Source: an uncultured Candidatus Bathyarchaeia archaeon
GTDB taxonomy: Archaea > Thermoproteota > Bathyarchaeia > TCS64
DNA: 64,000 bases
Direction: 5' to 3'
NCBI GenBank assembly: GCA_964529745.1
Contig: CAZGZR010000002.1
Span: forward strand, 1,682 to 65,681
Shown: piece after piece, positions 5,674-54,058 of the stretch
How the letters are laid out: the number at the start of each line of letters is the position of its first letter
Numbering within the stretch: the first letter of the stretch is position 1
Translations under genes and position numbers: made by a program
The notes under the pieces: generated by a model
What the model was told of the DNA's origin: nothing
What the model saw: the letters and a program-made list of their open reading frames with translations, nothing else
The model's database searches: none

Positions 5674-5702
5674 CTGTTCAATATAATGTGGAGGTACAAA
5701 TA

Positions 5703-7771: not shown

Positions 7772-7807
7772 CGATAATTCGAAGAGTCCAGACTATAATC
7801 TTATTTA

Positions 7808-7831
7808 ATAATATTTTACTGATATAATATT
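7808..7831. promoter_or_regulatory. gcvPA promoter: ATAATATT at about -27 (TATA-like) and a second copy at -11 to -4 overlapping the expected TSS
   Basis: Two copies 16 bp apart. The downstream copy ends 3 nt before the ATG at 7835. Confidence 0.45.
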
Positions 7832-7834
7832 GGT

Positions 7835-9238: not shown

Positions 9239-10785
9239 AAGACGTTAAACCAAGGGGCTACCACGCGCCTATCTGGAACGAGCCCATAATACATGAGCTA
9301 GATAGTCCGGGTGAAAGAGGGGTTAAGATACCAGCAGTTGAACCAGAGATAGATAGACTAGTTCAGGACATTGAGTCACTTGTGCCTTCATCGGTTAGAA
9401 GAAGAAAGCTGACACTACCATCACTTTCACAGCCTCAGGTCATCAGACACTATCTACGACTCTCACAGCAGTGCTTGGGAATGGAGACGACGATAGACAT
9501 CAGCTCAGGGACATGCACGATGAAGTATAGCCCCAAGATAAACGAGGAACTAGCCATGAAGATAGCTGATGTTCATCCGCTTCAGGACGATGAGACCCTT
9601 CAAGGTATACTGGAGATCGTTTACAAGTTTGGGTACATATTCCTCAAAGAGATATCCGGGATGGACGCTTTCTCGTTCCAGCCAGCGGGAGGCTCTCCAG
9701 CAGCGTATAACAACTCGGCTATAATCAGAAAATACCATGAACTAAACGGGGAAAAGGAGCAGAGAAACGAGATCATAACCACGATCTTCAGTCACCCCTG
9801 TGACGCGGCTTGCCCATCAATGGCTGGATACAAGATCGTGACCATCTTCCCTGATCCTGAAACTGGTTTACCTGATACCGAGGCATTGAAAGAGGCGGTC
9901 TCTGAGCGGACCGCAGGAATGCTCATCACCAACCCCGAGGACACGGGTATCTTCAACCCTGATATCGACGAATGGACCAAGATTGTCCACGAAGTTGGGG
10001 GACTTTGTAGCTATGATCAAGCAAACGCCAACGCGATAATGGGAGTCACACGCGCCAAAGACGCTGGATTCGATTTATGCTTCTTCAACCTTCACAAGAC
10101 GTTCGGCAGCCCCCACGGGGGATATGGTCCCGGCTGTGGTGGTGTAGGAGTAGTGAAAGAGCTTGAGGAACTGCTACCAGTACCTGTAGTGGTTTACAGG
10201 GATGGAAAATATAGCCTCGACTATGATAGACCTAACAGTATTGGTAAGGTCAAGGACTTTTTCGGTAACGTGCAGGTAGTGGTCAGGGCTTATGCTTGGG
10301 CGACGTCCATGGGAGCCAGAGGATTACGAGAGGCGGCCGAGATATCCATGATCAACAACCAGTACCTCCAGAAGAAGCTGCTAGAAGTACGGGGGATTAC
10401 CAAACCATACAGCACCGAGGGCAGAGTAGACCAGGTACGCTGGAGCCTTGAAGAGATGAGAGATGAAACAGGCATAGGGATAGGAGCTTTCAACAACCGT
10501 CTCACAGACTACGGAATACCAAACATATTCACTAGCCACCACCCATGGATCGTACCAGAGCCGTTTACCCCCGAACCCTGCGAGTCTTACTCAAAGGCTG
10601 ACATCGATTACTGGGCCTCGGTAATAAAACAAGTCTCAGATGAAGCCTATAATAATCCCGAGATAGTGCGAAACGCTCCCCATAATGCGGCTGTCAAACG
10701 CATTAACGGAGATAGCTTCGATGATCCTGAGACATACGCTACAACATGGCGTGCGTTCATAAAGAAACATAAAACGAATAGTTGA
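9235..10785 (+). CDS. gcvPB: Glycine dehydrogenase (decarboxylating) subunit 2 (P protein C-terminal half, PLP-binding)
   Basis: 516 aa. PLP-lysine context FFNLHKTFGSPHGGYGPG. Confidence 0.85.
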   Translation: MKDVKPRGYHAPIWNEPIIHELDSPGERGVKIPAVEPEIDRLVQDIESLVPSSVRRRKLTLPSLSQPQVIRHYLRLSQQCLGMETTIDISSGTCTMKYSPKINEELAMKIADVHPLQDDETLQGILEIVYKFGYIFLKEISGMDAFSFQPAGGSPAAYNNSAIIRKYHELNGEKEQRNEIITTIFSHPCDAACPSMAGYKIVTIFPDPETGLPDTEALKEAVSERTAGMLITNPEDTGIFNPDIDEWTKIVHEVGGLCSYDQANANAIMGVTRAKDAGFDLCFFNLHKTFGSPHGGYGPGCGGVGVVKELEELLPVPVVVYRDGKYSLDYDRPNSIGKVKDFFGNVQVVVRAYAWATSMGARGLREAAEISMINNQYLQKKLLEVRGITKPYSTEGRVDQVRWSLEEMRDETGIGIGAFNNRLTDYGIPNIFTSHHPWIVPEPFTPEPCESYSKADIDYWASVIKQVSDEAYNNPEIVRNAPHNAAVKRINGDSFDDPETYATTWRAFIKKHKTNS

Positions 10786-10804
10786 TCTCAAGGAGTTAAT
10801 GGTT

Positions 10805-11518
10805 TTAGAGCCCAAGGTAACTTTTTCTTACGTAATCGTTATCAAGAAGCTCCGAACCCTTGCCCTCAAGAGCTATCTCGCCGTTCTCCAAGATGTAAGC
10901 CCTGTTTGATATCTCTAGGCTCTGTCTCGCGTTCTGCTCGACGAGAAGTATACTGATACCCTGCTTAACAACAGTCTGGATGATCTCAAACACATTCAAC
11001 ACAAGAAGAGGCGCTAAACCAAATGTAGGCTCATCGAGTATCAATAGCGTTGGATCGCCCATCAAACCCCTACCGATGGCAACCATCTGCTGTTGGCCAC
11101 CACTCAGATTACCTGCCAGCTCGTTCTTCTTCTCCAAGAGAACGGGATAGATTCGGTAAATCTCTTCAAGCCTTTCCTCACGGTTCGCCCTAGCTCTTTT
11201 AGAGTAGGAGCCTATCTCAAGGTTCTCCTGCACGGTCATCTGGGGGAAAAGCTGTCTACCCTCAGGGATACAGATTATTCCCTGTTCCACTATCTGATGA
11301 GTAGAGACTCCACTGATTACTTTGTCTTGGAAACGGATGCTCCCAGATGAGGGACGGTTTAACCCGATGATGGTCTTGATTAAAGTAGTCTTGCCTGCCC
11401 CATTGGAGCCTAGAAGTGAAACTACCTCACCTTTGTCTATGTGCGCATGAATATTCTTTAGGACATGGTTGTCTCCGTAGCTGAAGTTTACTCCAGTTAT
11501 CTCCAACATCGTATCCAT
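10805..11518 (-). CDS. livF: Branched-chain amino acid ABC transporter ATP-binding protein (LivF-type)
   Basis: Walker [17 protein letters not shown] signature, Walker B LLILDEP. Confidence 0.85.
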   Translation of the reverse strand: MDTMLEITGVNFSYGDNHVLKNIHAHIDKGEVVSLLGSNGAGKTTLIKTIIGLNRPSSGSIRFQDKVISGVSTHQIVEQGIICIPEGRQLFPQMTVQENLEIGSYSKRARANREERLEEIYRIYPVLLEKKNELAGNLSGGQQQMVAIGRGLMGDPTLLILDEPTFGLAPLLVLNVFEIIQTVVKQGISILLVEQNARQSLEISNRAYILENGEIALEGKGSELLDNDYVRKSYLGL

Positions 11519-11521
11519 CTG

Positions 11522-12253
11522 TCACACCTCGATCCTAGCGCCTAGGTAGGCGCTGATTACCTGTTCATTGTTAGCTATCTCTCTAGGTGTTCCTTCGGCT
11601 ATCTTCTCGCCGTGATGGATCACGATGATCTTCTCTGATATTGACATGATCGCTTTCATGATGTGCTCGATGAGGAAGATAGTGAGATCTGTCTCCTTTT
11701 GAACCTCCTTAACAAACTCCAAGAAATAAGTGACTTCTGTCGGAGTAAGCCCTGATATGATCTCGTCAAGCATCAGAAACTTTGGTTTGGTAGCCAAGGC
11801 CCTGCAGAGTTCAACCAGCTTCTTATCGATGACGTTCAAATCCCGCGTAAGCACAGACTCTTTCCCTGATAACCCGAGGCGCGAGATGTAGGTCAACGCC
11901 TCTTCCTCGATCTCTTTCAGGTTTCCCCTCTCTGGTCTACCATAGAGACCGCCAACCACGACGTTATCAAGCACCGTGAGCCTGTTAAACGACTTGACCA
12001 ACTGGAAGGTTCTACCGACCCCTTTCTTGCATATCGTGTGGGGGGAGAGCCCGGTTATTGGTTCACCATCAAAATTTATGGTGCCTTTCTCTGGCTTGTA
12101 GAACCCGTTGATCACGTTGAACAACGTGGTCTTCCCGGCACCGTTAGGACCGATCAGCCCTACTATCTCTCCTTCTTCGATAGAGAAACTGACATCGTTG
12201 ACAGCCACGAGCCCCCCGAACCTTTTCGTGACGCTCTCGCATTCAAGCATCAT
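11522..12253 (-). CDS. livG: Branched-chain amino acid ABC transporter ATP-binding protein (LivG-type)
   Basis: [15 protein letters not shown], and the longer LivG-type C-terminus. Confidence 0.85.
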
Positions 12254-13245
12254 TCTTGCTCGTCTCCTCGTTTTACTAGTCTTACTAGCAGCGAGACTAG
12301 ATGTTGATAGGTACGGGTATAGATCACCCCACCGGGAGCAAACACGCCAACCAGCACCACTATGGCGCCAACGGTCGCTAGGTGAAGGAAGGATGTAATT
12401 AACATTATGCCTCGGTCAGCAGTCTCGATAATCAGTACACCAAGTATGGCTCCCATGATCTGACCCCTACCACCGATCATCAACGCGAGGGACGGTAGTA
12501 GAGTGATATAGGCGCCGAAGAACGTTGCAGGGTTGATGTACGCCAAGTATAGTGCGTGAACTGGTCCCATCAATGAGGGAATTAGGACACTAAGAAGCAT
12601 CGCCTTCACCTTCACACTGTAAGTATCTATTCCAGTTGCTTCAGCGAGCTCCAAGTCGTCTCTGATGCTTCGCATTGCATATCCAATGGGTGACCTCGTA
12701 ACGACTTTATACAGGATAATCGACAATATCACGAAGCCAAACGCGAGATAATAAGCCACAGTGCCAGTGAACCATTTACAGGCTGGGAGAGGTATTCCTC
12801 TGCTGCCTCCTGTAAACTCGAAAAAGTTGATGATGAGTTGACTCACCAAGCTACCTATACCCAGCGTCGCTATCGAGAGATAGGCGCCGCTGAGACGCTT
12901 GAACATGATTAATGACATTATCAACGCGAAAATCATCGAGACGATAGGTCCAATGATTAATCCACTGATGAATGGGTTCAATAATGGTAGACTCCAGCCC
13001 TCCCTCCAGAAGATAACAAAGATATACGAACTTATACCAAAGAAAGTCGTCTGAGACAGGTTGAGCTCACCCATGTGCCCCAAGATCATGTCGTTTGTCA
13101 CTGCCAACGCGATGATTGTAAAGTACCTGTATAGTAGACTTATAACGTAGCTTTGATTGCTGAAAGGAAACGATGTCAGTAAGAGTAATGATACGAGATA
13201 CAGTACGTTGGACAGGGTGAGCCTATCTTTTATTGAGACATTCAT
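12250..13245 (-). CDS. livM: Branched-chain amino acid ABC transporter permease (LivM-type)
   Basis: Multi-TM permease. The ATG at 13245 (MNVSIKDRL) gives an ATGA overlap with livH. The ORF extends to 13335. Confidence 0.75.
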
Positions 13246-14135
13246 TTGTTTCCCCCAAAGATTCCTCTTGGACGGAACAGCAAGAACAGTATCAGAAACA
13301 CCATCGAGACGATAGGCGACCACATGGGAGCCCAATAATACGCCGTTATCGACTCAGCTATCCCAAGCAACATCCCAGCGATAAGAGACCCTGGCAAACT
13401 ACCCAGTCCACCGAGAATGACACAGCAGAGACTTGGCATCAACAGCCTCTCACCAGTGTAAGGGTTGACGAGAGTGATCAACACATAAAACAAGCCAGCG
13501 GTTCCAGCTATCGCGGTGGCGAGACCAAAGGTAACCAACTCCATCCGTTTGGTGTTTACACCTACTATCATGGCTCCCTCAGGGTTCTGGATCATAGCCC
13601 TCATAGCCTTGCCCGTATAGGTTCTTTTAAAGAAAAGCGACAAAACGATGGTAAGTATGCTGATGAATACCAGAACGACTGTCCTAACGCCGGAGAGAAC
13701 GATTATCTCGCTGATATGGATCGATGGAAGAGACCAAGGCACGCTTATTCCGACACCTATAGTGATGGTATACATCAAGTCTCTGATGATTAATCCAAGC
13801 CCCATGGTGATCATCATCGAAAAGACCATTCTCTCAACGACTGACCCCCTCAGTTTGATGTTCTGGATGATTACGTAGTCGTACCCTGCCCCAAGCAAGA
13901 AAAACAGGGGAATAATAACTATAAGATAGAGAAAGGGAATCGTAGGATACAGGTTATAAAGATACTCAGTGACATAGGCCCCCACCATAAGCCAGTCCCC
14001 ATGAGCCACGTTATAAACCCTACAGATACCGTAGATAAGAGACAAACCGAACGCGATCAACGCGTAGATTCCGCCAAGAAGAATTCCTCCTATGACGATC
14101 TGTAAAAAATTGGGAAGTATATTTTCCAGTGACAT
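13242..14135 (-). CDS. livH: Branched-chain amino acid ABC transporter permease (LivH-type)
   Basis: 297-aa polytopic membrane protein upstream of livM, in operon order K-H-M-G-F. Confidence 0.8.
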   Translation of the reverse strand: MSLENILPNFLQIVIGGILLGGIYALIAFGLSLIYGICRVYNVAHGDWLMVGAYVTEYLYNLYPTIPFLYLIVIIPLFFLLGAGYDYVIIQNIKLRGSVVERMVFSMMITMGLGLIIRDLMYTITIGVGISVPWSLPSIHISEIIVLSGVRTVVLVFISILTIVLSLFFKRTYTGKAMRAMIQNPEGAMIVGVNTKRMELVTFGLATAIAGTAGLFYVLITLVNPYTGERLLMPSLCCVILGGLGSLPGSLIAGMLLGIAESITAYYWAPMWSPIVSMVFLILFLLFRPRGIFGGNK

Positions 14136-14151
14136 AGATGGATCAGCTTAA

Positions 14152-15402
14152 CTATGGTGTAGGATAGATATGATTTGCAGCTTTCGCCCACGCAGGGGCA
14201 ACGACTACAGGCTTTCCGTCCACGACTTGTGTCGGATACGCATATATGGAACCCAAACCATAGCCAGACTCTAAGCTTGTTGTGTTGAAGCTACAGAACC
14301 CGCCGATCGTCAAGTACTTCTGGTGAAGTATGGTGTCTCTGATCTCGACAGGGTCTTGGTAATCGTCTACCCTTTGCAGTGCTTCTAGTAGGACCTCATA
14401 GGACATGTAGCATGAAGCTACAAACGTGTACTCAAGGGGATCAAATCCTGCACGCGTGTATACTTCTTCCCACAGCTCCGCGTTACCTAGTTCTTGACCC
14501 GGTGGAGGAGTCCACATCTCATCCATCATGTACTCACTCAAGGTTCCCAAGCCGTCGATGACTGGTTTCCCGGAAGATCCGTGACTGTAGAACTCGCGTG
14601 GTTCTACTCCAAGTTCTTTGGCTTGTTTGATGAAGGCTACCCCGAATCCTGCATCATAAACGATGTCTGGATCGACCTCCTTGATGTGTGTAATAACCGA
14701 TGTGAAGTCCGTTGTCGCAGCTGGCAGCATCTCACGATACACTATCTCAAGTCCCGCTTCCTCAGCGTATTTTTGAGCACCCATAGCCAAACCCGTGAAT
14801 AGAGTATCATCTGCGTGTACGATAGCTATAGTATTGGCTTCTCCTTCCTCTGCGAGCATCTCGAAATAGAATTTTGGCTTGTCCTGTATCGGAACCAGTG
14901 GGCAGGCTACCCACTCGTTCCCCTGAGAGTACACGAATATGTCGTTGGCACACTGGTGTACCATTGGGACACCGTATTTCTCTGCAACTGTGCTAGCTGA
15001 GATAGCTAAATAGCTTGTAACAGCGCCCATGCATGCGTCGACTTTATCAACTGTGATCAGTCTCTCGTAGTTACTGACAACGATTGTTGGGTCGCTACGG
15101 TCATCGTAAATAATGAAATCAACAGGGCATCTTTGATTATATTTCTTGATGTAGATTCCGCCTCGTTCATTTAGTATCTCTTCAAGTGTCTCTGCAACCA
15201 GACCGGATTTGCCAAACACTGGAGCGCCCCATCCTGAGAGGGGAATCGAGCATCCAATCTTAATGACTGCTGGTGGCTCTGGCTCGACCTCTACTTCAAC
15301 GATTTTCTCTACCTCGGTTGGTAAGAGGAAATGACCAGCAGCGAACCCGATTATTCCTAGTACTGCCGCTAAAGCAATCCATGTGTTTTTATTATATTCC
15401 AT
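14152..15402 (-). CDS. Liv-type periplasmic substrate-binding protein with an N-terminal membrane anchor (archaeal style)
   Basis: N-terminal TM helix followed by a type-I periplasmic-binding fold. It is the first gene of the liv operon. Confidence 0.75.
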   Translation of the reverse strand: MEYNKNTWIALAAVLGIIGFAAGHFLLPTEVEKIVEVEVEPEPPAVIKIGCSIPLSGWGAPVFGKSGLVAETLEEILNERGGIYIKKYNQRCPVDFIIYDDRSDPTIVVSNYERLITVDKVDACMGAVTSYLAISASTVAEKYGVPMVHQCANDIFVYSQGNEWVACPLVPIQDKPKFYFEMLAEEGEANTIAIVHADDTLFTGLAMGAQKYAEEAGLEIVYREMLPAATTDFTSVITHIKEVDPDIVYDAGFGVAFIKQAKELGVEPREFYSHGSSGKPVIDGLGTLSEYMMDEMWTPPPGQELGNAELWEEVYTRAGFDPLEYTFVASCYMSYEVLLEALQRVDDYQDPVEIRDTILHQKYLTIGGFCSFNTTSLESGYGLGSIYAYPTQVVDGKPVVVAPAWAKAANHIYPTP

Positions 15403-15533
15403 TGTATTTCCATTAAATTATCCAAGATTAGATCTATATAATATTTTTCAATAACAATATTGTAGCGTTATAATATTGCTTAGAAGTTCTACCAATTAAT
15501 GTTAATTTTAACCTATAAAAATTTTAAATAACC

Positions 15534-15980
15534 CTAGGTTTGACGAATGTCGTAAAGACACTCATCATCTCCTTCTAGAACCCATTTAACCCGCTCTACC
15601 TTTATGTTTTTATTATATTCAACAAACTTCCAGATATCAACATCACAGTATAGCTTACAAAAATCCTCGGAGCCTTTCTCCTTCCAGATATCCGCGAATG
15701 GGCATCCATCAACAAACCCTATCCTCGGCAAGTCCAGCACCTTGTTATAGTTCTCAAGAACTGGCTCTAACCCCATTTTTAGGACTTCGTCTCGTACTCT
15801 TCGTGATCTGTCGAGACCGAACCTTTTGACTGATTCTGAGATGAATTTCTTTCCCTCTGTCTCACCCATCACTTCTATGGCGAGGTTGGAGAAGTGGTAG
15901 AACATCAGTCCGAATAGCCTGGCCATAGCTTCTACTTGTTCCGTAGCCTCGACGTAAGTGAAGGTCTTTTCTTTATCCAT
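15534..15980 (-). CDS. Hypothetical protein (possibly ATC-hydrolase-like), co-oriented 4 nt upstream-adjacent to the nitroreductase
   Basis: 148 aa with a clean ORF in GC-rich context. There is no confident motif. Confidence 0.5.
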   Translation of the reverse strand: MDKEKTFTYVEATEQVEAMARLFGLMFYHFSNLAIEVMGETEGKKFISESVKRFGLDRSRRVRDEVLKMGLEPVLENYNKVLDLPRIGFVDGCPFADIWKEKGSEDFCKLYCDVDIWKFVEYNKNIKVERVKWVLEGDDECLYDIRQT

Positions 15981-15984
15981 GGAA

Positions 15985-16815
15985 TCACTTTGTGATTATC
16001 GCGTCAGCTACGCTCATTCTGAGGCTCTTAATCGGTGCCTCATCTGGCCAGCCAAGGATGATGTGGCAGCGGCTCACGAAGGTCTCTGGTAGGTTGAAGT
16101 GTTCCCGTACCCTTTGTCTGCTGTCATCTCCATGGGTGAGCCAGCATGCACCAAGACCCAGTGCGTGTGCCATCAGGCAGATGTGATCTGCTGCTGTCGC
16201 AGCGTCGTAGTATAGGTTCTGAGGCACCCATGTGTCGAAAGTTAGTGCCTGGTATCCTCGCATGTCTTGGCAGACGATTATCATTACACCATTTTCGAGT
16301 GGGATGTCGCTTGTAACTAGGGACCAGTCTTTTGGGTCGCGGAGGACTATGAATCGACGTGAGTCTACGTTACATCCCACGGGGGACATCAATGCTGCAT
16401 AGATCATATCGTTGATCATCCAATCAGGGACCGGTTTATCCTTGAACTGACGTATCGAACGTCTCTCATAGAGCAGTTTTTTGACAGTCTCCATCTCTGC
16501 TGTGGTGAAAGGTTCTGGTAGTTCTGTGTCGAGTTCTACTTGTTCACCTCTGTTTAGTTTCTCTGCGATCTCGATGTTTTCTATGCACCATTTTAGGTCA
16601 GGGGTGTCGATGGGTAGCCCTCGCTCTCTCCAGATGTCAAGGAGGAACTTGGGTTGTTCTCCGAAATTTTCAGGTTTATTATATTTCCCGTTAAGAATAC
16701 GGTATAGAAATACCTCTATTCTGTGATGGGTTCTCTCATGGAGAAGGGTTCTTAGTGTTCCGACATCAATTTCGAGTAGTTGTTTTTTTGTGAAGCCATG
16801 TACTTTCTCTATCAT
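15985..16815 (-). CDS. Nitroreductase-family flavoprotein
   Basis: The C-terminal 180 aa match the NAD(P)H nitroreductase fold (RRSIRQF, SRRFIVLRDPKDW, GACWLTHG). Confidence 0.7.
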   Translation of the reverse strand: MIEKVHGFTKKQLLEIDVGTLRTLLHERTHHRIEVFLYRILNGKYNKPENFGEQPKFLLDIWRERGLPIDTPDLKWCIENIEIAEKLNRGEQVELDTELPEPFTTAEMETVKKLLYERRSIRQFKDKPVPDWMINDMIYAALMSPVGCNVDSRRFIVLRDPKDWSLVTSDIPLENGVMIIVCQDMRGYQALTFDTWVPQNLYYDAATAADHICLMAHALGLGACWLTHGDDSRQRVREHFNLPETFVSRCHIILGWPDEAPIKSLRMSVADAIITK

Positions 16816-16870
16816 ATTTTTAACTCCTTTTACAAATGTGTTCTCGAAAAATATATTATATTATTAAGTT

Positions 16871-16880
16871 ATAATATTAT
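16871..16880. promoter_or_regulatory. Perfect 10-bp palindrome ATAATATTAT upstream of the nitroreductase operon; second ATAATATT at 16890-16897
   Basis: One of at least 6 intergenic occurrences of the same motif (3324-3333, 5664-5673, 7808-7815/7824-7831, 15438-15445/15470-15477, 18023-18030/18039-18046). Confidence 0.5.
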
Positions 16881-17036
16881 CGCATGCGTATAATATTCTG
16901 GTTTTATAAAAGACAGCAGAATAAATAAGGCATCAACTACATTCCACCTTATGGCGGTTTGTCGCAATATACGCATGCAAAAACCACTTTAGTGAGAATT
17001 GCTAAGGTAACTCGCATACATAGACCCCAGATGAGT

Positions 17037-18005
17037 TCATGGGTTCCTATTTTGATCCTGTGATTTATTTACAAATGTTACAGGCTGTATGGGCTTCTCA
17101 TTAACCTCAAATTTAAAGACATCAGGTCTTGCATAATGACCTACAACATCGAAGTCAAACTTTCCACGAGCAACCTCAGAAAGGTCCAGTTCAGCGTAAA
17201 GTATTCCTTCCTCACCATATAGAGGACCAGCTAAAACCTGACCTAGCGGGGATATAATACAACTACCCCCTAGGCACATCTCTTCTGGTTGAGATTCGAG
17301 ATCCTCGATGCCAACTAAATCCTTTGGATACATATCCTTTGTGACATACTGATTACAGCCTAGAACGAAACATCGTCCTTCGCATGCTATGTGACGAAGA
17401 GTAGCTTGCCATGTATCTCGTGAATCCGCTGTAGGGGCGAGATAAATCTCGACACCCTTACCATACATCGCCATCCGAGCTAGGGGCATATAATTTTCCC
17501 AACAAATTAATCCGCCTATTTTACCAATGTCAGTTGAAATTACGGAAAGAGTACTGCCGTCTCCTTCCCCCCAAATGAGTCTTTCACTCGCTGTGGGTTT
17601 CAGCTTACGGTGTTTACCCAATAGTTTTCCATCTGGACCAAAATACAAGAGAGTACAATAAAGGGTACCTTGACTATATTCACTATCCCTCTCAATAACT
17701 CCCATGGCTAAGTATACTTCTGATTCCCTTGCAGCCTCACCCAATATCTCAGTATAGGAACTGGGCACCTCGATAGAATTCGACCAGTATCTCTCCCACG
17801 TTTGTCTGCCCTGTTTAGTCCGGTTTCCAACAACGGTTCCAAAAGTCAGACCCCTTGGATACGCAGGGATAAAAGCCTCTGGGAAAAGAACCAAGTCTAC
17901 ACTGTTTGAAGACGCTTCTTTAATCAGTTTACATGCCTTCGTAATGGATTCTTCCCGTTTGAAAAGGACAGGTGCGGCTTGAACTACGCCAACTTTGCAT
18001 CTCAT
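17037..18005 (-). CDS. Carbon-nitrogen hydrolase (nitrilase/aliphatic amidase family)
   Basis: FPEAFIPAYP (Glu), a Lys further on, and GGLICWENYMP (catalytic Cys). This is the E-K-C triad of the nitrilase superfamily. Confidence 0.8.
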   Translation of the reverse strand: MRCKVGVVQAAPVLFKREESITKACKLIKEASSNSVDLVLFPEAFIPAYPRGLTFGTVVGNRTKQGRQTWERYWSNSIEVPSSYTEILGEAARESEVYLAMGVIERDSEYSQGTLYCTLLYFGPDGKLLGKHRKLKPTASERLIWGEGDGSTLSVISTDIGKIGGLICWENYMPLARMAMYGKGVEIYLAPTADSRDTWQATLRHIACEGRCFVLGCNQYVTKDMYPKDLVGIEDLESQPEEMCLGGSCIISPLGQVLAGPLYGEEGILYAELDLSEVARGKFDFDVVGHYARPDVFKFEVNEKPIQPVTFVNKSQDQNRNP

Positions 18006-18300
18006 ATCTAGCTCTCTCTAAATAATATTCTAATTAAATAATATATAACACGAGTGCTAAATTGGGCGACCTTTGTGTCAACAATAATATCATTGATTAT
18101 AGTAAAAACCGGTTATAGAAGTTGATGATTTCTTGAGGTTTTTCTTTGATTGGTTGTTCAAGATACGATGAATGTTGCTCCATTTTATTCGGATTAATTT
18201 AGCTACTAAGTATTTAGAATACACGTGAACGAGCGCGCTTCATGGAGAAAACTGTCCATCTAACGAGGTTGCATCCGTTGTGTGGGTGGGGCCACACTTT

Positions 18301-18717
18301 TTACATGTAAAAATGAGGCGAGTTTTCTTCTCTATAAATTCTAATGGATAACACGAGTGTCAGCAACGAGAATGAATACCTCAACACTGTTTGCCACCAG
18401 TTGTTTAACGGGCTGTGCAGACCAGCGTCAGCTAACTGCCCCAACGACAATACGACGAACAGAGTATTCATAACCAAGAAAACAGCCTCCAGCCCGATCA
18501 GGCCTTTGAGTCCAAACCTTTTCCCGGATACATATAGAGAGGCAAGGCTTCCCATCAACGCGTATATCAACAAGACGGTTAAAGCGCTTTCAGAGTCATT
18601 GAATCGGTATTGGTCCATTCCGACGATGTATCCTCCGAAGAGTAGACGGAAAAACAGCGTAATGACCAAGGCTTTTTCGTTATTTGTGAGAATCATAGTA
18701 ATCAGCCTAGGCTCCAT
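18301..18717 (-). CDS. Small integral membrane protein (4 predicted TM helices)
   Basis: 138 aa with hydrophobic segments. It overlaps the end of the upstream oxidoreductase gene by 11 nt. This is a weak call. Confidence 0.35.
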
Positions 18718-26451: not shown

Positions 26452-26606
26452 TCAACGGTTCTCTGTCTGATCCTTGATATTGATTCTCTGGTTATCAAGA
26501 AATCGTAGATTATGAAAAGATCAATGTATTGAAGGAATGATTCAAGACTTTGAGTTTAAATACAAATTATGAGTTCGGAGTGGGGTTCGAACCCCACCCT
26601 CATTGG

Positions 26607-27929
26607 TTATCTTTTCCGCTGTGCGATAAAGATGACGGTGCATATCAACCCAAGAACCAGTGCCACAGATGGGAACCCTGGGATCCCACCATCGTCCTCT
26701 GATTCAGGCTCTTCCTCGACAACCGGACTCGTCTCCTCCACAGGTTCCTGAGCCTCAATGGGGGGCCCAAGACGATAAACTTGGACCCTACCCGTCTGAT
26801 CAACCTCGTCGATGTCCGCCCAAGGCTCACCCACCACAATATTATCGCCGTCGATGGCAACATCAAACCCAAACGCGGCCCGCGGGCAAGGCTCAGGCGC
26901 CGTAAGGTTCTGTAGAAGGCTCCCGTCAACGTCGAACACATACGCCTTTCCCTCGTACATAAACGGATTGACGTCGGCATCCCACTCCCCCACCACCACC
27001 CTGTCCCCGTCGATGGCCACGCTGTCACCGAATACCCCACTTAACTTTGGTTTCGGCGACTGCAGAGTATGTAGATGCTCCCCATCGGTGTTAAAAATAT
27101 ACGCTCTTCCTGCCCTAGAGACGCCGTCCACAGTTGCATAGCTCTCACCTATGACGATAAGGTCTCCTGAGGTGTCTATCGATGTACCGAACATTGCTTG
27201 GTCCTCTGGCTCAGGGGCCTGCAGGGTCATTAGGTGGTCGCCACTTTGATTGTACGCGTATACGCTGCCTGGGCTTAGGGGATTAGTTTCCTTGCCGCAT
27301 TCGCCGAGAAGTATTAGGGTTTCAGTGACCTCTATTATTCGCCCGAATCTTGCCCCCACCTTTGGTGTGGGCGCGTGTAGCGTCGTCATGTATTCTCCTT
27401 CGTTGTCGAACATGTGGGCTATGCCTTCACTCGTGTCCTCATAGATCACAGTTATGTCCTCATTGATGCCTGCGGTGCCAAAGTTTCCTCCTTGCCGTGG
27501 CTCTGGTGATTGTAGGGTCATCCGGTATGTCCCATCTGTGGTAAACACGTGCGCCTTACCCGCATCCCGTAAACCATCAACATCAGCTAACTTTTCTTTT
27601 ATGATGATGATGTCGCCGAATAGATCGAGTCTCCAACCAAAGTTGTAGACGTTTCCCGGGTCGGGTGACTGCAGTGCTGAGATCAGGGTCCCGTCAACAT
27701 CGTATATGTATACTTTCCCTGCGTCTAGAAAGTCGTCAACGTCGGCGTAAGGTTCGCTGACTAATATTATGTTACCACTTATTTTCACCTGGTAGCCATA
27801 CCATGCACCCTTCTCGGGGTTCGGCGACTCTAGAGTCAAGACATGGGTGTATTCTTCGTCTGCTGCATATATACCAAGTATCTGTGCTAGGATGACTGTT
27901 AAAACCAATAGAATTTTTATTTTCACCAT
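26607..27929 (-). CDS. Secreted FG-GAP-repeat beta-propeller protein with C-terminal PGF-CTERM archaeosortase sorting signal
   Basis: Signal peptide. About 8 repeats of the form LQSPxP..FG.S..I.GD.I.VGE.....G.aYvF. A Pro/Glu-rich linker is followed by GIPGFPSVALVLGLICTVIFIAQRKR. Confidence 0.7.
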   Translation of the reverse strand: MVKIKILLVLTVILAQILGIYAADEEYTHVLTLESPNPEKGAWYGYQVKISGNIILVSEPYADVDDFLDAGKVYIYDVDGTLISALQSPDPGNVYNFGWRLDLFGDIIIIKEKLADVDGLRDAGKAHVFTTDGTYRMTLQSPEPRQGGNFGTAGINEDITVIYEDTSEGIAHMFDNEGEYMTTLHAPTPKVGARFGRIIEVTETLILLGECGKETNPLSPGSVYAYNQSGDHLMTLQAPEPEDQAMFGTSIDTSGDLIVIGESYATVDGVSRAGRAYIFNTDGEHLHTLQSPKPKLSGVFGDSVAIDGDRVVVGEWDADVNPFMYEGKAYVFDVDGSLLQNLTAPEPCPRAAFGFDVAIDGDNIVVGEPWADIDEVDQTGRVQVYRLGPPIEAQEPVEETSPVVEEEPESEDDGGIPGFPSVALVLGLICTVIFIAQRKR

Positions 27930-28256
27930 GTTTCTCTCCTCGTTTTCTCAATCGCCATTAATTGTAACTATGTTCATATGTTAACCATCGCTGACCGTTA
28001 GCAATAGAACTTGGTTCTAATTAGCTGTATTAGATATTTAATGGTTTACAGTGAGTGAAAGAGGCCTAATCGATGATGTTATCCTCACACCGAATGGAGT
28101 ATAGCCGCTAACAGGGGGGACCAGTAACCCAGTCATTTCCATGCCTCTAAGAAGTAAACAAGCCCCAAAACAGACTGTTTTTCCATGAATCATATACCAA
28201 AGTGTAATCCACCGAATCAATATGCGCTGTTTATCTGTCAATGATACAAGAATATT

Positions 28257-28272
28257 GGTGCGGGAGTGGGGT
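28257..28272. repeat. att-like partial copy C of tRNA-Leu 3' end (ggtgcgggagtggggt), with an atttacaggtaaa arm-like motif 10 bp downstream (28283-28295)
   Basis: 15/16 identity to 31934-31949 of the tRNA-Leu gene. Confidence 0.45.
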
Positions 28273-28413
28273 GCCCACACCGATTTACAGGTAAATTGTT
28301 GCATGCGCGTAGAAGTTAAACCACGCGCGCCCAGCAAAGAGATCAATGTCGAATGCTCAAGGTTGATACATGTTTGACCATTAGATTCCGTCGAGCATAT
28401 TTTGTATGTAGAT

Positions 28414-29247
28414 TCAGATTTGGGAGGGACCCTGCATGATGACGTCCTTAATTTTCTCATAGCCTCCAGTCCAGTCACTGACTAACTCCAACCACCAATT
28501 AACCCCCGCATCTTGAAAATCCCGAATGGCCCCTTCTTTATCATCGCCTTTAGCAGCATCGAAACTTATCTTCACGATGTCATATGGATGACGTAAACCA
28601 TGCTTTTCCATGTACTCAACCATATTCCGATAATCATCAGGCGTTAACTGATTCCTATAGTCTTCACTTAGTGGAACCACTCCATCCAGATTGGCTGCCC
28701 TTCTAAAGGGTCCTTTCTTTGGCCAGGTACCGGCGCCCCATACCTTTATACTAGGTTTCTGGACGGGTCTCGGACGGAATCTTACTTTATCGATCGTGTA
28801 ATATTTGCCTGCGTAGCTGAAGTCCTCTCCACTCCATAAGCCATATAGAATCTCAAGGTGTTCGTCAGCCATCTCCGCCATTACTCTAGGGCTTGTCTCT
28901 TCATTCATCAAGGATAATTCGCTGGGACCTCCTAGTCCTACTCCGAGTATTAAGCGTCCTTCTGAGAGTATGTCTAGGGTCGCTGTCTCTCTGGCCAGTT
29001 TCCACGGTCTTCTTCTCGTTAACGGGGTCACCGTGGTACCGATATGGATCTTTTCGGTGTTCTCGGCTACACTGGTTAAGGCGATGAAGGGATCAACGGT
29101 GTCTGGGAAACCTTCCGTGTTAACGATATGGTCCCATAGAAAGAACCCATCCCATCCGGATTTCTCGGCTTCTGATGCTAACTTAGTTACATGTTTGGGG
29201 CTTCCAAACGTGTTACCAAAATTTGGCGCATATAATCCAAACTTCAT
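28414..29247 (-). CDS. LLM-class (luciferase-like) flavin/F420-dependent oxidoreductase
   Basis: TIM-barrel LLM motifs (GTTVTPLTRRRPWKLARETATLDILSEGRLILGVGLGG). Confidence 0.75.
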   Translation of the reverse strand: MKFGLYAPNFGNTFGSPKHVTKLASEAEKSGWDGFFLWDHIVNTEGFPDTVDPFIALTSVAENTEKIHIGTTVTPLTRRRPWKLARETATLDILSEGRLILGVGLGGPSELSLMNEETSPRVMAEMADEHLEILYGLWSGEDFSYAGKYYTIDKVRFRPRPVQKPSIKVWGAGTWPKKGPFRRAANLDGVVPLSEDYRNQLTPDDYRNMVEYMEKHGLRHPYDIVKISFDAAKGDDKEGAIRDFQDAGVNWWLELVSDWTGGYEKIKDVIMQGPSQI

Positions 29248-29360
29248 TGTTCGATTCCATAGGACTATTAGAATTGATGCGTTTAGATTTTATCAAGTCA
29301 TTAATTACTGTCATCGAGCCTTTTTTCTTATGACAACCTCTGATAATTTACAGGTAAAAC

Positions 29361-29376
29361 GGTGCGGGGGTGGGGT
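29361..29376. repeat. att-like partial copy B of tRNA-Leu 3' end (ggtgcgggggtggggt), preceded by atttacaggtaaa (29346-29358)
   Basis: 16/17 identity to the tRNA-Leu 3' acceptor/T-stem. Confidence 0.5.
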
Positions 29377-29651
29377 CTAATCCAAATAAAAAATCGTTAT
29401 CCCCCGAATCTTTCTTTCTTTTTTTCATTTCATGCATCTAGGGCGGACTTCTTGCCTGCGATATGTCTCAAAGAAATGTTGAGTGGACTAATGGGTTACT
29501 GAGGTACACGTTAAAAGTCTTTCAGGTTAAAGAGTTCAAGGCTCGTCCTAAGACGATACTCCAGCATTCGCTGGGTAATAAACGGATAATTAATTTTATA
29601 GATAGTTCATTTTAAAGGAAAGAGTTATAATAAATAATTGATTTTTATAAA

Positions 29652-29930
29652 TTAAATTATGTTTAATAAATCTTGGTAAGCATTATGACAGGTATCTCTC
29701 ATTGTAGAGTTTATCTGAAAATCTCCATATCTTGCCCAACGACTGATGTAAAAAGAGCATAAATAATCTTGAGCATAATTTTTCAAATGTCTTGAAACAA
29801 GTTTATTACGAATTTCATGATTTTTTGGGTGAATTGGTGTAGGAAGCCCCGCAAAAAATTTATCGACACAGTGTAAGGCGCCATAAAATAAAATTGTAGA
29901 TTCCCAATCAAGAAATTTACGAGAATTCAT
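29652..29930 (-). CDS. Small AT-rich protein with a HEPN-like Rx6H motif (candidate RNase/toxin)
   Basis: 92 aa. EIRNKLVSRH fits R[N]x4-6H. It is the last gene of a co-oriented AT-rich 3-gene cassette. Confidence 0.4.
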   Translation of the reverse strand: MNSRKFLDWESTILFYGALHCVDKFFAGLPTPIHPKNHEIRNKLVSRHLKNYAQDYLCSFYISRWARYGDFQINSTMRDTCHNAYQDLLNII

Positions 29931-29997
29931 ATCTAATACATTATAAGCATCATAATTTGATTTTAGAAGAGAGTCATGTTCCTGTTGAGTTGGTATA

Positions 29998-30561
29998 TTA
30001 TTTCCTCCTTAAAAATAAAGGACTCCACTCCGATGATATTGAAAATGTTGAATTAGTTGGTTTAAGTGAAAAATCAAATAAAATATCTTCATATCTATTT
30101 TCTAATTCAATTTGAATATTTACAATTTCTTTTAAAGTATTTGATATGTTTTCAGGGTTAAATATGGTTAAAAAAGATACACCATCAGCATTTAATTTAC
30201 AATAAATTATTTGAACTGCTTCTATTCTTGAGGCTTTTTCTTTGTAATATATAATTGATTCATCTTTTTTTGATTCTTTTTTCCATAATAATCCCTTAAT
30301 TTCTTTTAATTCAATTAACATTGTATCGTATTTTGATTCCAATTCATTTATCTTTTTATCATATTGTGTTAATTTTTCTCCATTTGATATTTGAGGAACT
30401 TTTTTTGAAGTTGACAATAATTGAACTATTTGGTCAATAAAAAACAAAGTACGAGGTTCAGGTTCTTGGATTAAAAAATCAAGTATATCACTTTGAGATA
30501 ATCGTCTTTCAGAACGAAAATATTTTAAAACATCTTCAAGGTTCTCTTCACGTGAACTCAT
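29998..30561 (-). CDS. Hypothetical protein (AT-rich cassette gene 2; predicted coiled-coil)
   Basis: 187 aa, Lys/Glu-rich heptad-like segments (KKINELESKYDTMLIELKEIKGLLWKKESKK). Confidence 0.5.
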   Translation of the reverse strand: MSSREENLEDVLKYFRSERRLSQSDILDFLIQEPEPRTLFFIDQIVQLLSTSKKVPQISNGEKLTQYDKKINELESKYDTMLIELKEIKGLLWKKESKKDESIIYYKEKASRIEAVQIIYCKLNADGVSFLTIFNPENISNTLKEIVNIQIELENRYEDILFDFSLKPTNSTFSISSEWSPLFLRRK

Positions 30562-30562
30562 A

Positions 30563-31225
30563 TTATCCCCTTACTTTTAATGAGATATCATTTACTTCAG
30601 ACAAAGTTTGTTCTAATAATTGATCAATATCTATTGGCCCATCTAAGGAAAAATCTGTTTCATAATTAATCCTAAGTTCACCATCTTTTTCATTTGAATT
30701 ATATCTAGTAATTAATGAATCTTCATTTTTTTCAAGAGAAATACCTGAAAGATTATAACCCATATCAAATATACCAGGGCATTTATCTTTAGCAATATTA
30801 GTATATCTCAACTTAGAATTCGTGGATATTCGTAAAGTAAGTGATAAAATAATTTTATTATATGGAGTATTTGTTAACTCACTACCTAAACCCATAAGAT
30901 AGTTTGCATCAATACTAATAGAATTGTAATCGATTTTAGTAAAATCAGTTTTTTCAGTTTTTATAAATGGCGGTACATATGTACCAATGCGAATTGCTAT
31001 TGAATTGACATTAAAGTCGTATGAAACATTATTTCCTGAAATGGAATATCTTGGAACAATATCAAAAATTTCCATTATAGAATCACGCCTTTGATCAGGC
31101 GCTTTAATTTGAATTTTGGATATTGGCATTTCATCAATAATTCTTTTTACATAATTAGGTTCATGTTCTCTGAATTTTATTTTGATTTCAAAAATCTCAA
31201 CGTCGTTCTTTGAAAAGAGTGACAT
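30563..31225 (-). CDS. Hypothetical protein (AT-rich cassette gene 1)
   Basis: 220 aa. The stop is 1 nt from the start of the next gene. No recognisable motif. Confidence 0.5.
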   Translation of the reverse strand: MSLFSKNDVEIFEIKIKFREHEPNYVKRIIDEMPISKIQIKAPDQRRDSIMEIFDIVPRYSISGNNVSYDFNVNSIAIRIGTYVPPFIKTEKTDFTKIDYNSISIDANYLMGLGSELTNTPYNKIILSLTLRISTNSKLRYTNIAKDKCPGIFDMGYNLSGISLEKNEDSLITRYNSNEKDGELRINYETDFSLDGPIDIDQLLEQTLSEVNDISLKVRG

Positions 31226-31342
31226 TTTCGAAATATTTAGTAAGTTAATGAAAATATAAGTTTGATGGATACCATTTATTTATAACGACAACAAGGAGAA
31301 GATAAATAGTTAAAGGATTCAAGATATCCATTTTCAAGCAAA

Positions 31343-31792
31343 ATGAAATTTCTACCTAAAGAAGGAACCCTTCAACTGGTAATCGCGGGAATACCAAATA
31401 AATACAAGCCATTCTGTAAACTACTGCTTGAAGCTGGCCTGACCTCTCTTGAGGCTTGGCAACTGAAATGGAGCAGCATCAACTTCAAGACAGGACACTT
31501 CAACGTGACACCGACAAAAAAACCGTAATCCTCGGACACTACAGCTATCACAGAGCCTTTTCACATGATACAGCTTCAGAGAAGGCTTCAGAAAACACAG
31601 GATAAAGCTAGCAGAGGAGCTAGGCAAACCGGTGATACTGAAATACAGTCTCAAGACTTTCAGGACATTCTGTGTCACAAGCTGCATCTACAAGTTCAAC
31701 GACCCGTTCGATAAAGCTATGGCAGAAACCGAAATAACGGTGGGTGGTGCCTGTGATGCGGGGGTGGGGTTCGAACTCTCCTACTTGAAGTG
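31343..31792 (+). pseudogene. Tyrosine-integrase pseudogene (frameshifted C-terminal catalytic region) abutting att copy A
   Basis: Frame 2 encodes LTSLEAWQLKWSSINFKTGHFNV (box I-like) and stops after an A7 run at about 31519. Another frame continues ...LKTFRTFCVTSCIYKF... (degenerate box II) to 31792. Confidence 0.5.
31756..31775. repeat. att-like partial copy A of tRNA-Leu 3' end (tgcgggggtggggttcgaac)
   Basis: 19/20 identity to 31935-31955. It lies about 160 bp from the intact tRNA. Confidence 0.55.
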
Positions 31793-31931
31793 ATACCACC
31801 ACACTCTCTTTTTATCAATGTTTTTTCTCTCCATCCATGGTTGGGTAACCACTTCACCTGCCTAAAGTAACAAATCATTTATACGATACTCCATAAAAAA
31901 AACGAAAAGTTACCGCCCACCGTTACCAGCA

Positions 31932-32017
31932 TGGTGCGGGGGGTGGGGTTCGAACCCACGGAGGACTAGTCCATCAGGTCCTAAGCCTGACCCCTTTGGC
32001 CACTCGGGAACCCCCGC
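31932..32017 (-). tRNA. tRNA-Leu (anticodon TAG), class II with long variable arm, CCA encoded
   Basis: The minus strand reads GCGGGGG-TT-CCCG..GGG-T-CAGGC/TCAGG-CTTAGGA-CCTGA-long variable arm-GTGGG-TTCGAAC-CCCAC-CCCCCGC-A-CCA. Acceptor, anticodon and T stems all pair. Confidence 0.8.
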
Positions 32018-32061
32018 ACACGCCAATACATCCACGGCAACCAGATTAAAACATTACCCGG

Positions 32062-33378
32062 CTACACCAGATGAAACCCAGTCTGCCTCCCATCCACCAC
32101 CCGGCACCCATCCACCGTGAAAACCACGTCCTGCTCCAGCGCACACCTGAACGACTCCCCGCCCCACTCCGGCAGCGGCCCCTCCACCGACAGCTCCATC
32201 GTGAACGCGTAGTTGTACTCCAACGCCACGTCGCCCCGCCCCTCGTTCCGCTCCTGCTCCCAAGGCAAACCAATCAAAGGCCCCGGCTCATGCAACAGGT
32301 GCCCCAAGCCGTGGCTGTACACCCTCGGGCTGGGAATCCCCCTCCCCCGGGCGTCCTCCAGGATGCGGGCCAACAGCTCGTTCCCAGTCAGCCCCCTCTC
32401 GAACCCCGCCATATAACAGTCCTGCAGCCTGTTTCCCTCGGCCATGAGCCACCGGGCGCCCTCCGGGGCGTCCGTCTCCCCGGGCCTCAGCACGTAGCAC
32501 CACTCCTGATGGTCCGTTATGAGGCCCAGGTACTCTATCCCCACGTCGCACCGTACGAAGTCGCCGGGCCTGATCACGTCGTCGTCCTCGCCGTGCAGCT
32601 CCCGGGCCTCCGGGCCACGCACAACCGTGAAGAACGGGTTGAAAGCCACCTGTAGCCCCAGGTCGGCGCACCTCTGCCAGTAGTGCCACACCAGATCAGG
32701 GACGGTCGTCACCCCCGGCACTATCGCCTCGTCGCTGTAGCACTCCGCTATCAGCGCGTGGGCCACCCCCACCACGTGCTCGTACAGCGTCACCTCCATG
32801 TCGGTCAGCGTCGCCAGCCACCGGGTCGCGCACTCCTCGGCCGAGACCAGCCGGTCCACGTACATCCCCGGCAGCGCCTCCACCAGCTGCTTGTACAGGT
32901 TGTGGGTGAGCCCCCCGGCCGCCCACTGCACCGAGCCGACGTTGATCCCTATCCGCTCCGGGTCCCGTTCCTCCACGATGCCCCCGAGGAGCGTCCACTG
33001 CTCACCGTGGTGGCTCCGCCCCGGCCACGGCGTCTCGTACAGGCCCTTCGTGTCCGTGAAAGACAGGTTTATGCGCTCCACCCCCCGCTCTGGTCCCCTG
33101 TCGTAGAAGACCAGCATCTGGAGTATGGGGCACCACGTCTCCATGGGTATCATGGTCTCGTAGACGGGGTCCAGGTCGTCCTCCTGGCAGACGATGAGCC
33201 ACATGTCCAGGCCCGCCTCCCTCATGGCGACGTGGAGCACCGTGTCGAGCCTCTCGGCGAGCACTCGGTCCATCATATGGGACCGCTCACGCATGGACAA
33301 TACCCTGGGGAACCCGTCTGATGCATTTCCAGCCATGAGAGGAAAACCGTCATCCACAAACAATAGCTTAACGGTCAC
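32062..33378 (-). CDS. M24-family metallopeptidase (Xaa-Pro aminopeptidase/prolidase-like) with N-terminal creatinase-like domain
   Basis: SHGLGHLLHEPGP (HGxGHxxHE), with Asp/Glu ligands upstream. Confidence 0.8.
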   Translation of the reverse strand: MTVKLLFVDDGFPLMAGNASDGFPRVLSMRERSHMMDRVLAERLDTVLHVAMREAGLDMWLIVCQEDDLDPVYETMIPMETWCPILQMLVFYDRGPERGVERINLSFTDTKGLYETPWPGRSHHGEQWTLLGGIVEERDPERIGINVGSVQWAAGGLTHNLYKQLVEALPGMYVDRLVSAEECATRWLATLTDMEVTLYEHVVGVAHALIAECYSDEAIVPGVTTVPDLVWHYWQRCADLGLQVAFNPFFTVVRGPEARELHGEDDDVIRPGDFVRCDVGIEYLGLITDHQEWCYVLRPGETDAPEGARWLMAEGNRLQDCYMAGFERGLTGNELLARILEDARGRGIPSPRVYSHGLGHLLHEPGPLIGLPWEQERNEGRGDVALEYNYAFTMELSVEGPLPEWGGESFRCALEQDVVFTVDGCRVVDGRQTGFHLV

Positions 33379-52803: not shown

Positions 52804-52881
52804 GGGCCCGTAGCTCAGCACGGATAGAGCACAGCCCTCCTAAGGCTGGGGTCGAGGGTTCGAATCCCCCCGGGCCCGCCA
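52804..52881 (+). tRNA. tRNA-Arg (anticodon CCT), CCA encoded
   Basis: GGGCCCG-TA-GCTC-AGCACGGATA-GAGC-A-CAGCC-CTCCTAA-GGCTG-GGGTC-GAGGG-TTCGAAT-CCCCC-CGGGCCC-G-CCA. Acceptor and anticodon stems are perfect. Confidence 0.8.
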
Positions 52882-52882
52882 C
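52856..52882 (+). repeat. attL (within the tRNA-Arg 3' end)
   Basis: Exact 27-nt match to 57477-57503. Confidence 0.85.
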
Positions 52883-52898
52883 GAACCCCCCTGGGACA

Positions 52899-54047: not shown

Positions 54048-54058
54048 TTTAAAAACTT

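Follow-up and report, generated by a model that had tools for sequence, protein, structure and literature searches.

A probable accretion array of three inserts at the 3′ end of a tRNA-Leu(TAG) gene in a Bathyarchaeia-like archaeon

What has happened at the tRNA-Leu(TAG) gene of an uncultured Candidatus Bathyarchaeia archaeon, where the 3′ end of the tRNA recurs in the adjoining DNA? The gene lies in a 64,000-nucleotide stretch of contig CAZGZR010000002.1 (assembly GCA_964529745.1, positions 1,682 to 65,681), here called the window, to which all coordinates refer unless a comparison locus is named. Synteny with two Bathyarchaeia loci from metagenome-assembled genomes, L001 and L007, runs in from the right and halts exactly at the tRNA 3′ end, where GC content falls from about 60% in the host DNA to 26 to 45%. 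The M24 peptidase encoded next to the tRNA is 86% identical to its counterparts in these loci, and the host is therefore a Bathyarchaeia-like archaeon. The tRNA gene is the primary attachment (att) site, and its 3′ end faces a stack of three units: E1 (155 nt, next to the tRNA), E2 (2.4 kb), and E3 (1.1 kb). We consider it highly probable that the stack is an accretion array in which every unit ends at a direct repeat of the tRNA 3′ end, as would arise from integration by a tyrosine recombinase. An earlier reading of the letters alone (the sequence-only reading) had proposed that tRNA-Leu is a hotspot at which elements integrated successively or in tandem and then decayed. Less-occupied states in L035 and L063 and re-use of the site in relatives bear this out; its figure of at least two integrations becomes three units, with the 155 nt between the tRNA and the nearest repeat counted as a unit of their own.

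The last 14 to 22 nt of tRNA-Leu(TAG) are repeated as three direct copies, A, B, and C (Table 1), at the three sites where the sequence-only reading had placed repeats of 16 to 20 nt. With one mismatch allowed, the core 15-mer occurs three times against an expectation of 0.00, a count reached in none of 100 dinucleotide-preserving shuffles; with up to three mismatches there are seven matches against 0.61 expected. Copies A and B have an identical 14 nt, TGCGGGGGTGGGGT, with one G fewer than the tRNA, and copy C is followed by GCCCACAC, which corresponds to the T arm or T stem minus its loop. The inserts are bounded by direct repeats of part of the tRNA, and an intact tRNA is regenerated, as for elements that target tRNA genes. 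Copy A is the tRNA-proximal att junction of E2 and copy B its distal junction; copy C is the distal junction of E3. An Rfam scan of 27500-32500 matched no RNA family other than the tRNA-Leu.

Two other stretches of the window resemble the tRNA end. At 18268-18311 a core-like TGTGTGGGTGGGGCCACAC is followed by a palindrome, TTTTTACATGTAAAAA, a layout resembling that of copy C; the alignment score for a further core near 18270-18311, at a GC boundary, was 23, inside the range of shuffled sequences (20 to 30), and no copy is claimed there. A perfect hairpin of T-arm type, GTGGGGTTCGAACCCCAC, occupies 26580-26599, 8 nt past the stop of an FG-GAP repeat gene (26607-27929); it matches the T arm of tRNA-Leu over 17 nt and could represent a terminator or, alternatively, a stray piece of att sequence.

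Comparison loci were metagenome contigs; a scan with the copy-B junction, TTACNNGTAAAANGNTGCGGGGG, returned at least 120 of them. Two contigs show less-occupied states. In L035 (WOR8_10013359), positions 4522-5642 match window 28256-29376 at 88% and positions 5624-7069 match window 31931-33376 at 83%, the two blocks overlapping at the core alone; the same tRNA-Leu(TAG), with its M24 gene, directly follows the C-to-B block, and exactly 29377-31930 is missing, E1 with it. In L063, E1 is present and only E2 is absent: the tRNA is followed by the 155-nt segment, one core, and then at once the block with the LLM oxidoreductase gene of E3 (window 28400-29376, 85.7%), and identity to L063 is 92.7% across window 31760-32018, which takes in the tRNA, E1, and part of core A. 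Deletion of E2 by recombination between A and B would regenerate this L063 junction. Among the compared contigs E2 is specific to the window, and the cores coincide exactly with homology breakpoints against L035, L063, and L025. To the left of copy C each sequence goes its own way. Homology between the window and L035 begins at 28256, the start of copy C, and beyond it L035 has the C-terminal remnant of an integrase of the E2 family and a spacer (P arm). L063 has an extra 3.3-kb insert, a further core copy, its outermost, and then DNA (6914-6971) matching window 28156-28213; in the window, that flank follows directly. Copy C is therefore a genuine, re-used junction.

Other relatives are occupied as well. 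L001, L007, and L025-L029 carry two to three core copies (two at tRNA-Leu in L001, three in L007), and L027 and L028 have extra inserts of 4 to 5 kb exactly at the tRNA-Leu core. Over positions 3600-15400 or so of L025-L029, contigs of several samples, these extra core inserts are the sole difference. L001 and L007 were considered as empty sites and rejected, both being occupied themselves and sharing synteny only up to the tRNA.

Table 1. Features of the tRNA-Leu(TAG) array, with the intact integrase relative in the same window
Feature	Coordinates	Strand	Details
Flank distal to the whole stack	28156-28256		28156-28213 is 83.6% identical to L063 6914-6971
Core copy C	28257-28272 (28257-28281 with T-arm remnant)	+	GGTGCGGGAGTGGGGT; 1 mismatch
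E3	28273-29360		45% GC, GC at third codon positions (GC3) 0.47; bounded by cores C and B; one gene
13-nt motif, second copy	28283-28295		Distal arm of E3, 10 nt past core C
F420-type LLM-class oxidoreductase gene	28414-29247	minus	PF00296, 7e-36; TIGR03619, 6.5e-37
13-nt motif ATTTACAGGTAAA	29346-29358		tRNA-proximal arm of E3, 2 nt from core B; palindrome TTTAC-AG-GTAAA
Core copy B	29361-29376	+	GGTGCGGGGGTGGGGT; exact match to the 16-mer of the sequence-only reading
E2 distal (P′) arm	29377-29591	+	Includes truncated conserved open reading frame (ORF) 29463-29615
E2 AT-rich cargo cassette	29592-31299	minus	1.7 kb, 26.5% GC; three ORFs
Cassette ORF, 92 aa	29652-29930
Cassette ORF, 187 aa	29998-30561
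Cassette ORF, 220 aa	30563-31225
E2 tyrosine-integrase pseudogene	31300-31737	+	Homologues P0001-P0003; DNA alignment A1
Core copy A	31755-31776	+	GATGCGGGGGTGGGGTTCGAAC; 22 nt including TTCGAAC; 1 mismatch, one G fewer than tRNA
E1, insert between tRNA-Leu and core A	31777-31931		155 nt; homology to L063, absence in L035
tRNA-Leu(TAG), intact, CCA encoded	31932-32017	minus	ARAGORN; Rfam tRNA, 53.1 bits
Intact integrase, 382 aa	52899-54047	minus	PF00589 above threshold; beside tRNA-Arg

We propose the following order of events. E3, carrying only the LLM gene and with a palindrome in both arms, would already have stood beside the tRNA when E1 was placed between the two; E2 would then have integrated at the distal core copy of E1, not at the tRNA, giving copies A and B. 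The one-G-shorter core shared by A and B is consistent with entry of E2 by this route. E2 derives from a family with the order core, P′ arm, cargo, integrase, 17-nt spacer, and core, and has decayed since. Integration was presumably catalyzed by an integrase, and the array would now be immobile in cis.

Several points weigh against this account. The comparison contigs are relatives at 83 to 93% identity, and the less-occupied site is a phylogenetic inference, not an observed excision. The sequence-only reading had called for comparison with genomes in which tRNA-Leu(TAG) is unoccupied; less-occupied states were found, but no genome in which this tRNA lacks E3, and the status of E3 as an insert comes from core C and the arms alone. 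No circular or excised form was seen, and among the contigs no attP-only example was identified with certainty. E1 and E3 have no integrase and could be deletion stumps that never integrated as such. Finally, the L063 array stands at tRNA-Leu(CAG), not (TAG): at L063 2328-3554, E1 (93% identity) and the LLM block lie behind that tRNA, beside gcvT/gcvH, and at least one step was therefore a relocation or a recombination between tRNA-Leu genes.

The last two points favor another account, in which E1 and E3 never integrated as units and are products of homologous recombination between tRNA-Leu ends or cores, or stumps of large elements, and only E2 is site specific. We regard this as possible but rather unlikely. 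Shuffling between arrays speaks for it: a fragment of a tRNA-Leu end is found in the array at tRNA-Arg, elsewhere in the window, and a tRNA-Arg fragment in the L063 array, and module exchange by homologous recombination between tandem elements has been reported (PMC8371274). E3, however, has both arms, with core and palindrome at one end and palindrome, 10 to 11 nt, and core at the other, and the same arrangement flanks larger elements in L128 and L073 (degenerate core). Recombination of this kind is in any case compatible with successive integration and does not exclude it.

The first of the two fragments is a 44-nt stretch at 57621-57664 (minus strand), 86% identical to the tRNA-Leu 3′ end plus its downstream GGTAACRGTGGGCRGTAAC flank, and lies inverted between two tRNA-Arg att copies; the second, a tRNA-Arg 3′ end, lies at L063 4980-5050. 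The tRNA-Leu and tRNA-Arg arrays exchange pieces. E1 carries at its tRNA-proximal end the motif GGTAACGGTGGGCGGTAAC (31909-27) and a T-run; the motif is found too in L007 and at window position 57643.

As the sequence-only reading had it, the LLM oxidoreductase is the sole gene of E3; its description of this interval as GC-normal does not hold, the GC content being 45%, and that of the host DNA on the right-hand side of the tRNA about 60%. That reading had also noted a 13-nt motif, ATTTACAGGTAAA, on alternating sides of copies B and C. The motif occurs exactly at these two places and nowhere else in the window; it does lie in both arms of the C-to-B unit, and it proves to be half of a palindrome, TTTTACNNGTAAAA, that is widespread beside tRNA-Leu cores. 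In about 135 kb of window and relatives, four of the seven occurrences of TTACNNGTAA are within 25 nt of a core. The core-then-motif layout of copy C is kept in L035 (ATTTACTAGTAAAAT) and beside the core copy at L007 10370; the distal layout of palindrome, 10 to 11 nt, and core is likewise seen at these two sites and in L128 and, with a degenerate core, L073. In L035 the motif-bearing arm of E3 abuts the intact tRNA. As expected of arm-type sites, the 13-nt motif is repeated in P and P′ and differs from the core; it genuinely belongs to both arms of an element family. The palindrome itself could be a putative arm site, an operator or promoter, a terminator plus B recognition element, or part of the tRNA trailer. 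A search of IMG/VR with the motif GGTAACNGTGGGCNGTAAC gave two matches only, both within unrelated coding sequence.

The junction TTACNNGTAAAANGNTGCGGGGG is shared by at least 120 metagenome loci (L033-L152), in which the palindrome follows tRNA-Leu 3′ ends and stands directly past the CCA where the tRNA-Leu gene is complete, whichever of the five anticodons it has (CCA-TTTTACNNGTAA); a TATA-like box comes next. About 45 nt beyond this box, 43 of the 75 loci with a called first downstream ORF encode a conserved protein of about 175 aa, with an N terminus that is probably ribbon-helix-helix-like, judged by sequence pattern alone, and its gene overlaps the gene for an integrase of about 325 aa (PF00589, 4e-29). 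These loci look like a widespread element family that targets all tRNA-Leu genes. Some metagenome loci, L083 and L069 for example, contain short palindrome-minicore-palindrome units.

A further account, to which we give little probability, would have a cassette-like capture system in Bathyarchaeia-type archaea: integrase-less segments of one or a few genes, each with ends made of a tRNA-Leu 3′ minifragment and the palindrome TTTTACNNGTAAAA, would pass in trans between the five isoacceptor genes, singly or in composites (E1 with E3, for instance). Examples would be the LLM oxidoreductase here, the RNase PH of L007, and a set of three small paralogues in L001, and the proposed agent is the widespread operon of the 175-aa protein and the integrase, which has the same palindrome at its promoter. 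The L007 unit (10370-11400) holds the single RNase PH gene between two core copies 1.0 kb apart, and the L001 unit (5680-6794) holds the three paralogues, of about 103 aa each, in tandem between the tRNA and the second core copy; like E3, both are integrase-less, att-bounded, and about 1 kb long.

E2, the unit that successive integration would have added last, occupies the interval between copies B and A, described by the sequence-only reading as an AT-rich cassette with an integrase pseudogene, which is what we find: a cassette of 26.5% GC and an integrase gene with multiple lesions. The P′ arm together with its core (29361-29585) is 78.9% identical over 227 nt to the arm at the distal core of an element of about 7 kb in L025-L029, and the right end (31714-31776), comprising the 3′ end of the integrase gene, the 17-nt spacer, and core A, matches the corresponding end of the L025 element at 92% identity. 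The 7-kb element runs from core and P′ arm through cargo and integrase to spacer and core, and its cargo includes a TIR-domain protein and an SLFN/AlbA_2-like protein, both defense-type genes. E2 retains both arms of this element family; its interior was not matched in the compared contigs. The three cassette ORFs matched nothing in Pfam, NCBIfam, PADLOC, or PHROGs. The 220-aa protein has just 14 relatives at E ≤ 1e-3 among 1.84 billion representatives, all of about 220 to 270 aa; its AlphaFold2 model (pLDDT of 79) predicts a duplicated beta-sheet-plus-helix fold, for which the best template modeling (TM) score against the Protein Data Bank (PDB) in Foldseek was about 0.3. The 187-aa protein is an orphan, a homologue search returning only itself. 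The single-sequence model of the 92-aa ORF was unusable (pLDDT of 53), and its R-x6-H string (RNKLVSRH) could, as an unsupported suggestion, be HEPN-like.

A sequence of this kind, from a 67-kb metagenome-derived contig and with such a fall in GC content at the tRNA, might be an assembly chimera in which contigs of different genomes were joined at the tRNA or its copies. We think this very unlikely, as the junctions recur in independent assemblies: tRNA, E1, core, and E3 in L063; tRNA and E3 in L035; and integrase, spacer, and core, as well as core and P′ arm, in L025-L029. The interior of E2 alone lacks a counterpart junction elsewhere. Moreover, the island at tRNA-Arg is just as mosaic in composition and has a clean 28-nt repeat.

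The integrase of E2 is, to judge from its sequence, a dead member of the PF00589 family. Three homologues, P0001 (61% identity) and P0002 and P0003 (238 to 239 aa), are 46 to 61% identical to it. Joined as the sequence-only reading had suggested, its two frames score 23.2 bits against Pfam PF00589, below the cut-off of 27.1, yet all three homologues carry the domain; for this catalytic domain, P0001 to P0003 and the 382-aa relative are above threshold and the window copy is not. In DNA alignment A1 about 25 codons are gone from the 5′ end; a +1 frameshift falls in the A7 run at 31516-31522, the homopolymer at which the frame had been read as broken, with one extra base relative to the three homologous genes; 54 nt are deleted; a TGA stop stands at 31566-31568; a deletion of about 165 nt between conserved flanks takes out the H and Y catalytic region; and the box I Arg is replaced by Thr. 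With at least five lesions present, resequencing of the A7 tract cannot rescue the gene.

The 3′ end of the gene is preserved. The homologous genes in L025, L031, and L032 end in W-x-K-P-K and a TAG or TAA stop, followed by a spacer of 17 to 24 nt (CGGTGGGTGGTGCCTGT in L025) and the tRNA-Leu core. The window retains the gene end TGGCAGAAACCGAAATAA, the same spacer as L025, and then copy A; the true stop is therefore the TAA at 31735-31737, 17 nt upstream of copy A, and the ORF that reads through copy A (31632-31793) is an artefact of the internal deletion. The proposal that the integrase 3′ end overlaps copy A must accordingly be dropped. An integrase gene beside an att junction is the layout not only of E2 but of L025, L031, and L032 and of the tRNA-Arg locus.

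The read-through ORF, and the absence of the catalytic-Tyr region at that end, would suit an SSV-type "suicidal" integrase, with attP inside the ORF, the frame into copy A as Int(N), and the C-terminal part past another core. However, the Tyr region was lost by an internal deletion between conserved flanks, the genes in L025, L031, and L032 stop 17 to 24 nt short of the core, at a codon that the window has retained, the frames continuing past B or C encode nothing integrase-like and hence no Int(C), and the intact family member at tRNA-Arg stays whole while integrated; we reject a split integrase as extremely improbable. The notion that the repeats are random in a GC-rich genome and the locus an ordinary chromosome, a refutation that the sequence-only reading had itself named, carries virtually no weight: the copies are just 14 to 22 nt long and G-rich, and the score of the additional candidate at 18.3 kb falls among those of shuffled sequence, but none of the 100 shuffles reaches the observed count and the copies sit exactly on the homology breakpoints.

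The tRNA-Arg element, with its intact integrase, is the model within the window of what E2 formerly was. At tRNA-Arg(CCT) (52804-52881), the integrase stops 17 nt from the tRNA, and 28 nt of the tRNA 3′ end are repeated exactly at 57476-57503. The pseudogene is 25% identical to this integrase. P0002 aligns to residues 161 to 382 of the 382-aa protein (9e-21), and residues 7 to 135 are matched (1e-23) by a 138-aa ORF that immediately precedes P0001 in L029; the E2 integrase and the 382-aa integrase therefore belong to one family. The zinc-ribbon/core-binding and catalytic parts are fused in the 382-aa protein. The family has a single distant match in IMG/VR.

Further features of these relatives were noted. 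The tRNA-Arg element (52804-57760) is apparently intact and 4.6 kb long, with a second, degenerate repeat at 57734-57760; its cargo is AT-rich, with weak matches resembling rolling-circle Rep at 56453-57397. At L029 9566-10537, two neighboring ORFs encode separately the N-terminal zinc-ribbon/core-binding part (138 aa) and the catalytic part, either as a result of gene fission or because the gene is a frameshifted pseudogene. The integrase of the resident element in L025-L029 has a nonsense codon at the Tyr of EVQYRAGH.

The window as a whole is a mosaic, in which core DNA of about 60 to 65% GC and GC3 of about 0.85 is broken up by blocks of lower GC. A 17-kb block at 1400-18300 has a GC3 of about 0.5 against about 0.85 in the window core and contains genes of amino acid metabolism and transport, including those for asparaginase, an M19 dipeptidase, GcvP1/P2, a Liv-type ABC transporter, and nitrilase. 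Neither an integrase nor a clear boundary repeat was found for this block, which may be an old island or natural heterogeneity.

How, then, does the array relate to known systems? With SSV1-type elements it shares an archaeal tyrosine recombinase at a tRNA gene and an integrase gene at the att junction; it differs in that attP lies 17 nt past the stop, the gene is not partitioned, and the tRNA-Arg relative is whole while integrated. The best profile and structure matches of the integrase family are to XerA (NF040815, 9e-11 and 4e-27; PDB 4a8e, 5e-5), but its scores fall far short of the 220-bit equivalog cut-off. The family also has a zinc-ribbon-like region at the N terminus, its C-terminal tail ends in W/Y-R-K-P/L-K, and it adjoins the att sites of mobile elements, not a chromosomal dif-like site. 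The intact tRNA-Arg integrase has H-x-x-R and a C-terminal Tyr; P0002 and P0003 have K-x-x-R instead, plus the Tyr. As with the arm sites of lambda, a short conserved motif stands in each arm of one unit, E3, beside the core, but here the palindrome abuts the tRNA CCA end and, in many loci, a TATA-like box that precedes a small-protein/integrase operon. Integrons offer no parallel: copies of the tRNA 3′ end form the boundaries, neither IntI nor any attC-like structure was found, and the integron-integrase model scored far below its cut-off.

Accretion in streptococci brings together integrative and conjugative elements and integrase-less cis-mobilizable elements (CIMEs). The array resembles this in structure, with the integrase-less, att-flanked segments E1 and E3 in tandem with the integrase-bearing E2, and with E1 plus E3 present at two tRNA-Leu genes. 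The streptococcal system is bacterial and linked to conjugation, and the likeness here is structural only; the only hint that they might be mobilized in trans is the place of E1 and E3 behind tRNA-Leu(CAG) in L063.

The array leaves the current understanding of site-specific integration unchanged. It records the build-up of foreign DNA, including an LLM oxidoreductase and an orphan AT-rich cassette, at one tRNA in a poorly studied, uncultured archaeal class, and it connects an inactive integrase with a relative of its family that is still intact elsewhere in the window. The palindrome beside tRNA-Leu 3′ ends, common to at least 120 environmental loci, offers a handle for finding integrated elements in metagenomes of Bathyarchaeia.

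The closest known systems are the tandem integrated elements and "cryptic integrated elements" at tRNA genes of Sulfolobales, Thermococcales, and Thaumarchaeota, where repeated use of a single att site is known to build arrays and integrases are known to be lost from integrated elements (PMC8371274, PMC6563490). Bathyarchaeia proviruses with integrases have been described in a study that does not report arrays of this kind (PMC10848311). As in those archaeal arrays, direct repeats of the 3′ part of the tRNA flank the units, the att site is re-used, the integrase is lost or inactivated, the cargo is of foreign composition, and the att sequences, at 14 to 28 nt, are within the reported range of 8 to 100 bp (PMC8371274, PMC6563490). 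What sets the present array apart is its Bathyarchaeia-like host, the very small size of its units (155 nt, 1.1 kb, and 2.4 kb), and the probable use by its newest element, E2, of a secondary core copy instead of the tRNA. We conclude that the array provides additional examples of the known tandem integration at archaeal tRNA genes and is an ordinary genome scar.

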